Source: Candidatus Binatia bacterium
GTDB lineage: Bacteria; Desulfobacterota; Binatia; Bin18
Length of the DNA stretch: 64,000 bases
Assembly: GCA_965231775.1 (NCBI GenBank)
Contig: OZ246888.1
Location: 785,757 to 849,756, forward strand
Direction of reading: 5' to 3'
Shown here: one piece after another, positions 27,864-31,451 of the stretch
Numbering within the stretch: position 1 is the stretch's first letter
Layout of the letters: each line of letters starts with the position of its first letter
Translations under genes and position numbers: made by a program
The notes under the pieces: model-generated
What the model was told of the DNA's origin: nothing
Databases searched by the model: none
The model's input: the letters and a program-made list of their open reading frames with translations, nothing else

Positions 27864-28232
27864 CTAATCAACCGACTCCGTTCCCTCTGCTATCCGTCTC
27901 AAGGAGAGCAACAGTGCAGGAATATCATTCTGAATGATGTCCCAGATGATATCGTTATCTATCCCCAGATATCCATGCGCAATACGGTTGCGTGTACTCA
28001 CTATCGTTCGCCAGGGGATTTCCGGGTAGGTTTCGCGGACCGCGTCCGGGATATGGGTAGCCGCCTCGCCAATCAGTTCCAGATTCCGCAAAGTAGCATC
28101 GTATGTGAGAGTGTCACTGACAAAAGTGTCTTGATCCATGCCGTCGGTAAAGGATTGGACTTTCTCGGCAAATTCAATCATGTCATTCACGTAGAAACGC
28201 CATTCTCGCTGCTCTCGCTCGGCATCAGACAT
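27864..28232 (-). CDS. HepT-like HEPN (DUF86) RNase toxin, type VII TA
   Basis: RNRIAHGY (RX4HXY) motif; ATGTCTGA overlap with the upstream MNT stop. Confidence 0.9.
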   Translation of the reverse strand: MSDAEREQREWRFYVNDMIEFAEKVQSFTDGMDQDTFVSDTLTYDATLRNLELIGEAATHIPDAVRETYPEIPWRTIVSTRNRIAHGYLGIDNDIIWDIIQNDIPALLLSLRRIAEGTESVD

Positions 28233-28515
28233 AAATGGCCTCTCGCTCGACATACGGGCGCAGTTCCGGGCGGAGCGCTTTGTCGGTGACCAGATCAACG
28301 GAGAGCCCTGTCAGGTCTTCCAAGTAGAATTGCACACCGAAGTAGCGCTTGGACGTAGCAGGCCCGTTGAAACGAATCAGGATGTCTATATCGCTGTCAG
28401 ATGTAGCCTCTCCGCGAGCGATCGATCCGAAAAGCGCGATATCGATAACGCCGAAACGTTGCACCAGGATCGCTTTGTGATCTCGCAACAGTGTTAAGGC
28501 TTGCTCTTTATCCAT
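28225..28515 (-). CDS. MntA-like minimal nucleotidyltransferase antitoxin
   Basis: LFGSIARGEATSDSDIDIL (GSX10DXD); GAGGAG RBS before MDKEQ. Confidence 0.9.
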   Translation of the reverse strand: MDKEQALTLLRDHKAILVQRFGVIDIALFGSIARGEATSDSDIDILIRFNGPATSKRYFGVQFYLEDLTGLSVDLVTDKALRPELRPYVEREAIYV

Positions 28516-28537
28516 CGCTCCTCTTTTCTCCGGTCTG

Positions 28538-28608
28538 TCCGGCTCCCCCTCCATCGCTGCTCTCCGAATAGCACGCCGCAACACTTCGGACTTTGGTACC
28601 TTCGAGCG
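28538..28608. repeat. Direct repeat: orphan fragment of the RHH antitoxin gene, in frame with MNT
   Basis: 71 bp, ~10 mismatches to 31306-31376; encodes RSKVPKSEVLRRAIRRAAMEGEP. Confidence 0.88.
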
Positions 28609-28626
28609 GCTAGGAGTGATTCCGCA

Positions 28627-30765
28627 TTACCTTGCGCGGGCCAAGGTGGCTCGTCCTGTGACCTCGGAAACGACAAGGACCTCAACCGTATTCCGGCCAG
28701 TCTGAAACGAGGATTCCGGGACCACGGCTGACCAGCTCCCATGTCGGCCGTTAATTGGTACGCTCCAGGGATGAGTAGTCGCTTGTATCATACCATTGAC
28801 TGCCACGGCGAGTGAGACGGTCTTGCCGTTTAGAAGCGCCGGAGTGACTTGACCGGTGACATGGGCGGGAATGAAGTCGGATTGTAGGTCCACGTCGGTA
28901 AAGGAGTCCGGTCGGTCAATCGTAATCCGCACCGGTGCTTCTCCAACGCTTCCGAGCTCGTCGGTCCATTTGCCGATCAACGTGGAGTGGGGGCCAAGCC
29001 TGAACAGACCGGGAAAGAAGGGGCCGGAGCCAAACAGGCGGTGTTGACGCGCGATCGCACGTTCCAGGGCCTCGGCCAAGCCCGTGAAGACTACCGGTTG
29101 ATGGTCCGGGTAGCGGGAGATCCGGGGAGCCCGTTCGGTCGGCGAACCAAATGCCGAGCGTCCATCAACGGCCCAGGGAACGTCAATGTCGAGCATGTCG
29201 GCTAGGCTGGGAAGAATATCGACTGTTTCGGTTGGTCGGTCGTCAATGCGGCCGTGAGCTTGAAAGGGCGCTTTGATGAACAGGGGGACGGACATGATGT
29301 CCTGGAAGGTGGTCTGGGTCGGCTGCCGGTACAAGTCGCCCGGTCGGAAACTGACGCCGTGGTCCGCGGTCAGAACCAGCAGCGCCTTGTCGTACAGACC
29401 GATTGCCCGCAGATGATCCAGCAGCCCGCCCAGCCAGGTATCCACAAAGCCGACCTGGAGGAGGTGGCGTTGATGGAGTTGGAGCACATTCCAGGTGTCA
29501 GGGACATGTCGCATGTCCGAGAGGTTCGTGCCTGACAGGCCGGGCATCCCCCTCTCATGGCTATAGCCCTTCGCGGACGGGAGATATTGATAGGGGTAAT
29601 GCGGCAACAGGATATGCAGAAAGTACAGACTCGGCCGGTCCGTGATCTGAATCGTGCGGACGAAATCCAGCCCTTGCCGGCGGCGATCAGAGAGGCTTTG
29701 CCTTGCCCGTCTTCTGACATGTTTTAACTGGCCGGTGTTGGGGTCGCCCGGGGCGGAAGTGCCGACAAACCCATTCCACTTGTGAGTGATCGACGGCAGC
29801 CCGACCCGAAGGTCCGGGGGCAGCAGGAGATGGAGATAGACGACTGCCAAGTCGGACAGCACGGACGGCAGGCGGTGCCATCCTCCCTGGACCTGCGGGC
29901 ACAGGTGGGACGGGCAGAGTTGGGTCAGGGGGCCGGACGCATTGAGGTTGTACGTCCCGGCCAGCAGAGTAAACAGATTATGAGGATGATCGATAGCGTG
30001 CGGCAGGCGGTCGGGCTTGGGATAGTTGCCGGTCAGGATGGCCGGAACCGCGTGGTAGGTTGAGTCGCTGACGGTAGTCGCATTCCGAAACCAAGTCGTG
30101 TTCTGTGCTAGAGCTGCAAAATTGGGATAGCGAGCCGCATCAATCCGACGGTGTTCGTTGAGCAGCGAAATCAGGGGGAGTTCGTCCAGGATGATAAAAA
30201 CGATAGGCGGCGGATTCGCAATCCGTACACGCTCAACCGGAAGCGAAGCGTCCTCCGAAAAGATAATCCGAAAGACCGGCGAGGCAAACACGAACAGGCA
30301 CGGAAAAACCAGCACAGCCGGAGACAGCAGGCTGAAGAACAGCCGGACGGGCTGAAAGAAGGCGTAGAGCAGGGCCGCATACGTCCCAAGCACCAACGCT
30401 CCGTAGACCAGAAAAATGCCCTGCACCGCGTCGACCCGATGGAGGACGGGCAAGATCGTGAGCGCTACGCCGAATGCAAGAACCGCGTTGTGGACCCAGC
30501 GCCTCAGCCGCTGACTCACCAGACCGATGAGCCCCTCCAAGCCAACCAGGCCGAGTGGGAGGAGCACACTGAGAATTACGACCAGAGCGATAATGTCTAT
30601 CCGGGCAGCGTTCTGAAAGATAAAAAACTCGGCTTGGCGAGCCAACAGGTCAAAGAGGGGCTGTGCGACGGCAAAGCCCACCAGGGCAAAAATATGCAGA
30701 CTATCGGACCGGTACGTCTCCCAGCCCGGCCGGGGGTGGGCGCGAGGATGTTGGCTGGCAGTCAT
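28627..30765 (-). CDS. Membrane-anchored sulfatase-like (alkaline phosphatase superfamily) hydrolase/transferase
   Basis: ~5 N-terminal TM helices; ILDELP, STYHAVPAILTG, HILLPH, TADHG metal/nucleophile motifs; no CxPxR. Confidence 0.82.
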   Translation of the reverse strand: MTASQHPRAHPRPGWETYRSDSLHIFALVGFAVAQPLFDLLARQAEFFIFQNAARIDIIALVVILSVLLPLGLVGLEGLIGLVSQRLRRWVHNAVLAFGVALTILPVLHRVDAVQGIFLVYGALVLGTYAALLYAFFQPVRLFFSLLSPAVLVFPCLFVFASPVFRIIFSEDASLPVERVRIANPPPIVFIILDELPLISLLNEHRRIDAARYPNFAALAQNTTWFRNATTVSDSTYHAVPAILTGNYPKPDRLPHAIDHPHNLFTLLAGTYNLNASGPLTQLCPSHLCPQVQGGWHRLPSVLSDLAVVYLHLLLPPDLRVGLPSITHKWNGFVGTSAPGDPNTGQLKHVRRRARQSLSDRRRQGLDFVRTIQITDRPSLYFLHILLPHYPYQYLPSAKGYSHERGMPGLSGTNLSDMRHVPDTWNVLQLHQRHLLQVGFVDTWLGGLLDHLRAIGLYDKALLVLTADHGVSFRPGDLYRQPTQTTFQDIMSVPLFIKAPFQAHGRIDDRPTETVDILPSLADMLDIDVPWAVDGRSAFGSPTERAPRISRYPDHQPVVFTGLAEALERAIARQHRLFGSGPFFPGLFRLGPHSTLIGKWTDELGSVGEAPVRITIDRPDSFTDVDLQSDFIPAHVTGQVTPALLNGKTVSLAVAVNGMIQATTHPWSVPINGRHGSWSAVVPESSFQTGRNTVEVLVVSEVTGRATLARAR

Positions 30766-30798
30766 TTTAGATTTTTGGCTGGTAGCGTGGATTTTCCC

Positions 30799-31170
30799 TT
30801 ATACCACCGTCAGGCTGGAAGCCTCGAATCGGCGAAAGTCCGCCACATTCGCAGTCGCGATGGGCGCGTCGTCGACGAGCGCCGTTGCTGCAATCATGCA
30901 ATCGATCAATGAGCCACGCCGCCTGCCCGACTCATTAAACAAACGGGCGGCAATCGTAGCGTGCTTCGACGTGAAGTCACGACGCTGTCCGACGATTTCA
31001 ATGGCCAATTCCATCTCGGAACGGTCAAGTGGGCCGCACAGGAACTCTGCCCAAGCGACCGTACTCATTACCAGTGTTTCGCCTTCTTCAATCCAACGCC
31101 GTAGTCTGCGGTCTTCAGATGATCCCGGTTTCAGGGCTTGGATCAGAAAACTCGTGTCCAAGTGGATCAT
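30799..31170 (-). CDS. vapC: VapC-like PIN domain toxin
   Basis: LDTSFL, AWAEFL, LIDCMIAATA, TANVADF acidic tetrad; ATGA overlap with upstream antitoxin. Confidence 0.9.
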   Translation of the reverse strand: MIHLDTSFLIQALKPGSSEDRRLRRWIEEGETLVMSTVAWAEFLCGPLDRSEMELAIEIVGQRRDFTSKHATIAARLFNESGRRRGSLIDCMIAATALVDDAPIATANVADFRRFEASSLTVV

Positions 31171-31451
31171 TGAGACTTGGAAGATAGCCGCGGAGCAGCC
31201 GCTTGGCGCTCAGCATTGAGAGTCCGTGCCCACTGTGTGACACTGACCTTGCGCTTGCGCAGAGAAGCCTGCAATTGGTCAAGAGCGCTGAGCGCCACAC
31301 CGCTCTCCGGCTCCCCCTCCATTGCTGCTCTTCGAATAGCACGCCTTAATACTTCGGATTTCGACACCTTCCAGCGTTGTGCCAACGCCTCCAGTGTGTT
31401 TACGGATTCGACATCCAGCGAATATGTCGATTTGATGGTTTGTGCAGCCAT
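31167..31451 (-). CDS. Ribbon-helix-helix (CopG-like) antitoxin
   Basis: IKSTYSLD..SV..LEALAQRWKVSKSEVLRRAI strand-helix-helix pattern. Confidence 0.85.
   Translation of the reverse strand: MAAQTIKSTYSLDVESVNTLEALAQRWKVSKSEVLRRAIRRAAMEGEPESGVALSALDQLQASLRKRKVSVTQWARTLNAERQAAAPRLSSKSQ
31306..31376. repeat. Direct repeat copy inside the intact RHH antitoxin gene
   Basis: Partner of 28538-28608, period 2768 bp. Confidence 0.88.

Follow-up and report, generated by a model that had tools for sequence, protein, structure and literature searches.

The 64,000-nucleotide (nt) stretch of DNA analyzed here (the window) comes from a Candidatus Binatia bacterium (contig OZ246888.1, positions 785,757 to 849,756), and its minus strand carries an orphan piece of a ribbon-helix-helix (RHH) antitoxin gene between a sulfatase-like gene and mntA-hepT, which encode a minimal nucleotidyltransferase (MNT) antitoxin and a HEPN toxin. 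A complete RHH gene, paired with the PIN toxin gene vapC2, lies further upstream, and a first-pass annotation had proposed that recombination between the two RHH copies would fuse RHH to MNT ahead of HepT. We found that the orphan adds one more case to a known phenomenon, the remnants of genes in hypervariable toxin-antitoxin islands. Judged from sequence comparison, it is very probably a scar of cassette turnover, with MntA still made as its normal 96-amino-acid (aa) protein. A switch or a DNA-binding class of MntA would be notable because the regulation of the hepT-mntA operon is poorly understood and because MntA antitoxins lack a DNA-binding domain, as the literature states (PMC7641770). 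The evidence points to an ordinary scar rather than to either of these.

The repeat and its orphan copy

The two RHH copies form a direct repeat on the minus strand (31376-31303 and 28608-28535) that spans 74 nt, with 63/74 positions identical (85%), a longest perfect run of 17 nt and a start-to-start spacing of 2768. When the same repeat pair was compared between genomes by blastn, the match reached E ~1e-18, far above chance. Local alignment against shuffled sequences revealed no similarity past the repeat on either side (p=0.69 on the 5' side, p=0.43 on the 3' side), so its edges are sharp. The upper copy covers codons 26-49 of the RHH gene (94 aa, 31451-31167), while the orphan copy starts 18 nt past the stop of the sulfatase-like gene and is essentially helix 2 of RHH. 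These limits are essentially those of the 71-bp repeat first noted at 28538-28608.

Several structural claims of the first-pass annotation also held. The orphan runs into mntA in one frame with no stop, and the open reading frame (ORF) 28584-28225 reads VLRRAIRRAAMEGEPDRPEKRGA-MDKEQ.... In silico deletion between the copies, expected to give an RHH-MNT protein of ~150 aa, yielded an ORF of 459 nt and 152 aa, made up of RHH residues 1-48, an 8-residue linker, (E/D)RPEKRGA, and the 96-aa MNT. MNT keeps its own ribosome-binding site (RBS), with AAGAGGAGCG preceding the mntA ATG at 28515. We read the in-frame relation of orphan and mntA as a by-product, which would arise with a 1-in-3 chance. The sulfatase ORF, the orphan and mntA share one reading frame (28225-30765), and the sole break in it is the TAA at 28629-28627.

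When compared with nine functional RHH alleles, the orphan was closest to the allele of another species of the genus, G006 (68/74 overall, 55/56 in the core) and most distant from the RHH gene of its own genome (63/74), which has five private synonymous changes. Private to the orphan are W27S, S30P, E49D and a single synonymous change, all of them at one or other of its edges, and both W27 and S30 are invariant in 9/9 functional alleles. The orphan retains only codons 26-49 and is truncated at both ends; among relatives it is present only in G018, and the segment and the sulfatase gene are found together only there and in the source genome (G000). With its double truncation, its lineage-specific damaging changes and no conservation as a unit, the orphan shows, at the sequence level, the decay expected of a gene remnant. 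A count of seven synonymous and no non-synonymous differences in the core was considered as a sign of selection on the orphan, and the comparison of nine alleles reversed this reading: the synonymous differences are those by which functional RHH alleles diverge from one another, so the 7:0 excess does not reflect selection on the orphan. The source genome and G018 are 98-100% identical over 28890-28491, which covers the sulfatase 3' end, the orphan and the start of mntA, compared with 71-91% in the flanking sulfatase sequence and 68-92% per 100 nt over the rest of the sulfatase gene. We read this stretch as the likely product of a recent recombination event.

The mntA flank and the history of the site

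We compared the same locus in ~18 congeneric genomes (Candidatus Binatia). In four of these (G007, G012, G016 and G003, which include the most divergent congeners), the site is empty, with the alpha/beta hydrolase gene ~30-190 nt past pdxJ; that of G007 reads ...CCATAA TGTGGTACAAGGCAATTTAAGGAGGACTCGAC ATG. The empty site is thus the ancestral state, and the whole 4.6 kb between these two genes in the window is an accreted array of toxin-antitoxin cassettes. More than 10 distinct toxin-antitoxin or defence arrangements were found at the site (window 27731-32324; L022-L026, L210-L220), and the simplest occupied one, pdxJ-mntA-hepT, has no RHH domain. The VapBC1 cassette is present in G001, G002 and G006 and absent from G018, G023 and G007, while the RHH-VapC2 pair also occurs in G002, G004, G005 and G006. 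Their order is reversed between genomes, with RHH-VapC2 before VapBC1 in G002 and the opposite in G006 and the source genome, and G006 and G011 retain just an MNT remnant. A copy of the pdxJ tail, 34-77 nt long, follows most cassettes; copy B in the window matches copy A at 86% identity and the end of pdxJ in G007, whose site is empty, at 95.7%. Together, the empty and >10 occupied states form a series that shows cassettes accumulating, trading places and degrading at a single intergenic site of uncultured Binatia.

The genomes G001 and G023 and the contig L005 lack the RHH segment, yet from 28548 downward their mntA flanks match that of the window. The final 14 nt of the repeat are therefore mntA flank sequence. 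The flank reads GGAGAGCCGATCAG in G023 and GGGGAGCCGGACAG in the window, and the first 14 nt of RHH codons 46-49 read GGGGAGCCGGAGAG. RHH codons 45-49 (GGGGAGCCGGAG) and the mntA flank (GGAGAGCCGATC) have in common a GG(A/G)GAGCCG microhomology of 9-12 nt, which we infer to be the point where an illegitimate deletion connected the RHH gene and the mntA flank.

The mntA flank also aligns gaplessly with mntA-upstream sequence of other genomes along the chain G023-G019-G053-L004-G134 (p=3e-4 for each of G023-G019, G053-L004 and G134-L004). In G019 it reads ...RRAERTGN, and in G053 ...AGWEQDVKTERTG, followed by a stop 13 nt before the ATG. The corresponding vestige is out of frame with mntA in G134 and in frame in L004 (5001-5144), where it gives rise to a 144-aa gene call (P0002). 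This stretch of ~45 codons in L004 and G134 matches the C-terminal half of the RHH antitoxin family (profile 3e-9; tblastn 46% identity), and the vestige lengths are nested: ~45 codons in L004, G134, P0011, P0235 and P0236, ~13 in G053, and ~7 in G019, G023 and the source genome. The pattern ...W.Q.V[KR][TA]ER[TV]G... recurs on the mntA 5' flank (window 28516-28548; L004; L031; L039; L048), and the window flank is a vestige of the ...RAER(T/V)G... tail of an RHH-type antitoxin. By these alignments, the cassettes of this mntA subfamily have, 5' of mntA, vestiges of an RHH-type antitoxin gene that are nested in length. Since the vestiges are in frame, out of frame or stop-closed, they are not a conserved extension of MntA. 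A search with the L004 remnant returned only five proteins, all of them remnant-plus-MNT calls, and no full-length RHH parent. A match of GTGCTATT in the L005/G023 spacer to RHH helix 2 (p ~0.05) was set aside: its TGTG(N)TA is native sequence after the pdxJ stop in G007 (empty site) and G002, and the remainder of the spacer lines up with the vestige of an RHH-like C-terminus in G019, G053 and L004 rather than with helix 2.

Because several lineages have such an RHH-type C-terminal vestige as the mntA flank, it is plausible that an RHH gene lay immediately upstream of mntA in the distant past. It is possible, if rather doubtful, that the ancestor of this mntA-hepT subfamily was a module with an RHH-type gene lying directly 5' of mntA, or fused to it, and supplying promoter and autoregulation, so that the helix-2 fragment in the window would be a second, recent RHH capture at the same flank. 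If true, this second capture would be a hint of repeated recombination between RHH genes and mntA cassettes.

We considered whether the orphan could serve as a functional N-terminal extension, with translation of MntA starting at the GTG at 28584, or reading through the sulfatase TAA in the same frame, and with a role for the helix-2-like peptide. From the sulfatase stop on, the frame stays open as far as mntA, the sulfatase ORF lies in the same frame, and the stretch is identical in the source genome and G018. On the other hand, no Shine-Dalgarno-like sequence precedes GTG 28584, and a fragment without the beta-strand and helix 1 cannot form the RHH fold. The canonical 96-aa start is kept in most homologues among the 120 matches listed of the 4347 found in the protein search described below, and the upstream vestiges of other genomes are variously in frame (L004), out of frame (G134) or closed by a stop (G053). 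We therefore regard a functional extension as very improbable.

The scar would instead have formed within an array of toxin-antitoxin cassettes that built up between pdxJ and the hydrolase gene. A second cassette of the RHH-VapC2 type, carrying a G006-like allele, probably once stood upstream of mntA-hepT, with the orphan as its last remnant. Its 3' end would have been joined to the mntA 5' flank by the illegitimate deletion at the 9-12 nt microhomology, and its 5' end cut off when the sulfatase-like gene arrived with, or just downstream of, another RHH-VapC2 cassette. MntA would then be translated as 96 aa from its own RBS and ATG and, by analogy with other type VII systems, neutralize HepT. 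This order and mechanism of the rearrangements, like present-day expression, are our reconstruction from what could be observed directly, namely how the locus is built, how it compares across congeners, how the alleles are related and that no fusions were found.

Fusions and recombination between the copies

A protein search with the reconstructed fusion as query found 4347 homologues. Among the 120 matches listed, none carried an RHH domain on the mntA homologue; the great majority were 96 aa long and started at MDKEQ or MNKEQ, and the longer calls had N-termini derived from the pdxJ-side spacer, a DUF2806-side remnant or a HicB-like sequence. One candidate RHH-MNT protein with 92% query coverage (P0006, 201 aa) was rejected, as its N-terminus is HicB-like plus another antitoxin remnant. 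With only the RHH part as query, and restricted to proteins 102 aa or longer, the search found 114 matches, some of which are read-through fusions to PIN and none of which contains an MNT domain (PF01909). At the DNA level, no open frame longer than 147 aa surrounds mntA in 401 genomes of the class, no RHH-MNT fusion was found in the ~18 congeneric genomes, and none of 162 mntA loci, drawn from collections of genomes and metagenomes, has an RHH domain in the reading frame of mntA. RHH profile matches in those loci were confined to G018 (L050), L004, a different antitoxin in G013 and an RHH-VapC pair 1.1 kb upstream in a Bryobacterales genome. The search for fusions that the first-pass annotation had suggested was thus negative throughout, which agrees with the literature, where HEPN-RHH fusions are on record and MNT-RHH fusions are not (PMC2701414).

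The suggestion that the locus was an RHH-MNT/HEPN system before the insertion fared no better, given an ancestrally empty site, a simplest occupied state without RHH and no fusion anywhere. A more specific form of this idea is that, in an ancestor of the source genome and G018, a deletion joined an intact, promoter-bearing RHH gene at codon 48/49 to mntA and created a working RHH-MntA antitoxin, after which RHH-VapC2-sulfatase DNA arriving from the left displaced the resident copy from codon 26 on, as at the pdxJ tail. The junction of codon 49 to the mntA flank does exist, and in frame; the Pfam RHH_1 match (residues 11-42) falls within RHH residues 1-48; older RHH-type vestiges lie upstream of mntA cassettes; and displaced tails of similar length and identity bracket toxin-antitoxin cassettes at pdxJ (77 nt, 86%) and at 21341/22127 (64 nt, 80%). 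However, such a fusion was seen in no extant genome, contig or protein examined, and the data are accounted for just as well by the reverse order of events, in which no fusion ever arises. The fragment also has the changes W27S and S30P, which are absent from every functional allele, and RHH-VapC2 is by itself a complete and widespread cassette. We consider an ancestral working fusion unlikely.

The first-pass annotation had alternatively envisaged a locus that switches between two toxin-antitoxin configurations. Exchange between the 74-nt copies would excise 2768 bp in part of the population and convert RHH-VapC2 plus MntA-HepT into RHH-MntA/HepT under one promoter. The repeats are indeed direct and share one orientation, excision would yield an in-frame product, and mntA would have its own RBS in both states. 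Efficient RecA-dependent exchange usually needs a perfect match of roughly 20-30 nt, which the 17-nt run within a repeat of 85% identity does not reach. The joint predicted for excision (28535/31376) was absent from the contigs of four source runs (X1-X4), which covered the locus colinearly, none of the ORFs between 26.5 and 33 kb was found to encode a site-specific recombinase, and no deleted state was seen in the ~18 congeners. Excision would also be irreversible once the circle was lost, and it would remove the function of the RHH antitoxin while the VapC2 protein persists. Overall, long near-perfect repeats and an adjacent recombinase, either of which would be expected of a switch, are both lacking, and the two configurations were not seen to coexist. 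A present-day switch is accordingly highly unlikely.

The sole joint at repeats in the source-run contigs connects 31585 to 32389 and skips VapBC1. It comes from a minor strain (runs X3 and X4) that is ~91% identical, has ~1/4 to 1/7 of the main depth and lacks VapBC1 between the pdxJ tails. In metagenomes X6 and X8, joints at 28599/31402 and 28593/31405 were examined as the predicted fusion, and the 34 intervening letters encode RHH helix 1; a loose end at 28546 in the same metagenomes runs on into the RHH C-terminal region. These joints belong to full RHH paralogues, each running on into a C-terminal region of its own and not into MNT.

Three points weigh against the orphan being simply a scar. 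The source-run data are Logan contigs, which are assembled and can hide rare excision variants. The 98-100% identity over 28890-28491 would fit constraint on that stretch as well. Finally, either order of the two junction-forming events fits, and since joining RHH codon 48/49 to the mntA flank required a deletion, a fusion existed transiently if the 5' half of RHH was then still attached; an intact, transient RHH(1-48)-MntA ancestor is therefore possible.

The island, its cargo and known systems

The gene assignments in the island (Table 1) are each supported by a Pfam scan, with which the NCBIfam matches agree while scoring below curated cut-offs. The product of mntA matches PF01909 (E=1.1e-18) and PF18765 (E=3e-11) and contains the GSx(n)DxD motif as FGSIARGEATSDSDIDI; its NCBIfam MntA match of 43 bits is below the 60-bit cut-off. 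That of hepT matches PF01934 (E=3.5e-31) and contains RNRIAH, an RNase motif of the Rx4-6H type, and the gene overlaps mntA by 8 nt. With a minimal nucleotidyltransferase antitoxin gene and a HepT-like HEPN toxin gene directly downstream, the pair has the makeup of a type VII system. Upstream, an RHH_1 gene followed by a PIN gene, with the antitoxin stop overlapping the VapC2 start (ATGA, 31170-31167), makes up a type II system of the RHH-PIN kind. The 71-nt spacer between pdxJ tail copy B and the RHH antitoxin holds the promoter-like TTGACG-17-TACATT; such sites occurred in our scan as often as expected from shuffled sequence, making this weak evidence alone. An Rfam scan of 26.5-33.5 kb gave no match.

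Table 1. Features of the island between pdxJ and the hydrolase gene, in window coordinates
Feature	Coordinates	Strand	Basis or remark
pdxJ	32325-33062	minus	left anchor of island; Pfam PdxJ E=6e-86
pdxJ tail copy A (last 77 nt of pdxJ)	32402-32326	minus	repeat family D1
VapB1 (cassette 1)	32216-32013	minus	Pfam VapB_antitoxin E=4e-17
VapC1 (cassette 1)	32006-31596	minus	Pfam PIN E=3e-15
pdxJ tail copy B, displaced	31523-31599	minus	repeat search
Promoter-like TTGACG-17-TACATT	31458-31486	minus	consensus match; ends 6 nt 5' of RHH ATG
RHH antitoxin, 94 aa (cassette 2)	31167-31451	minus	Pfam RHH_1 E=1.8e-5, residues 11-42
VapC2 PIN toxin	30799-31170	minus	Pfam PIN E=1e-13; NCBIfam VapC match below curated cut-off
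Membrane sulfatase-like gene, 712 aa	28627-30765	minus	Pfam Sulfatase E=2e-20
Orphan RHH fragment, repeat copy 2 (codons 26-49)	28535-28608	minus	repeat search and frame check
mntA 5' flank, contains RBS	28516-28548	minus	common to G001, G023, L005
mntA, 96 aa, minimal nucleotidyltransferase antitoxin	28225-28515	minus	Pfam NTP_transf_2
hepT, 122 aa, HEPN RNase toxin	27864-28232	minus	Pfam HepT-like E=3.5e-31
Alpha/beta hydrolase gene	26723-27730	minus	right anchor of island; Pfam Abhydrolase_1

In characterized members of the type VII family, MntA neutralizes HepT by (oligo)AMPylation (PMC7641770, PMC8138530). The pair in the window resembles systems such as SO_3165/SO_3166 of Shewanella oneidensis (PMC7641770) in the overlap of the nucleotidyltransferase and HEPN genes, the GS...DxD and Rx4H motifs and an antitoxin without a DNA-binding domain. 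It differs in having an orphan RHH gene piece in frame just upstream, which nothing indicates to be part of the protein. The source gene of the repeat is the RHH gene of an RHH-PIN pair with an ATGA overlap, as in VapBC-type cassettes (Makarova et al. 2009, PMC2701414), but the second copy here has only 24 codons and no toxin partner. The HEPN-RHH fusions of the paREP1 family of Thermoproteales (PMC2701414) likewise join an RHH domain to a component of the HEPN/MNT world, although the partner there is HEPN rather than MNT and no MNT accompanies it.

The orphan can also be compared with displaced ends. In orphan arrays of Rhs and contact-dependent inhibition (CDI) systems, the replacement of cassettes leaves behind orphan fragments and 3' ends that have been displaced. 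Here, too, a short homologous segment is kept downstream of arrived DNA, which gives diverged direct repeats with sharp edges, and the pattern recurs at the pdxJ tail and at 21341/22127 in the window and at a symporter gene in a Bryobacterales genome. Unlike in Rhs/CDI arrays, the segment here is internal to an antitoxin gene and is joined to the unrelated mntA-hepT rather than to its own old 3' end; this joining to an unrelated cassette requires at least one additional illegitimate deletion.

The sulfatase-like gene occurs at this locus only in the source genome and G018. Its coding region (28632-30702) is 93% identical at the nt level to a copy in a genome of another family (G025; L221, G025:C13), where the flanks are unrelated, while the copy of the congener G018 is only 78% identical at the aa level. 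A paralogue with 63% identity lies at G000:C1:3260788-3262872. These comparisons suggest a recent horizontal transfer of the sulfatase-like gene alone, and on the evidence of its distribution the gene is cargo, not core, at this site.

Table 2. Arrangements at the site in congeneric genomes and one contig
Genome or contig	Arrangement or content
G023, contig L005	pdxJ-mntA-hepT
G001	pdxJ-VapBC1-tail-mntA-hepT
G004, G005	pdxJ-RHH-VapC2-x
G002	pdxJ-RHH-VapC2-VapBC1-tail
G006	pdxJ-VapBC1-tail-RHH-VapC2-tail-...-MNT remnant
G011, G015	VapC2 cut after codon 26-30
G018	pdxJ-RHH-VapC2(1-30)-tail-RHH3(with a stop)-VapC3-sulfatase-orphan-mntA-hepT
G013, G022	type III restriction-modification genes and DUF2806 gene

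In G018 (L022, extract positions ~1170-2181), the break of VapC2 after ~30 codons is accompanied by a small duplication (GGCGGCGTTGG twice), and it is followed by a pdxJ-tail copy, a third RHH-type antitoxin with an in-frame stop and a third PIN toxin. Elsewhere in the window, 21341-21404 and 22127-22190 form a direct repeat of 64 nt with 80% identity and a spacing of 786. In the Bryobacterales genome (L053), which belongs to another phylum, three 205-nt copies of a sodium:solute symporter tail (1746-1950, 3445-3649 and 4778-4982) bracket HicAB and RHH-VapC, followed by mntA-hepT, in the same tail-bracketed pattern.

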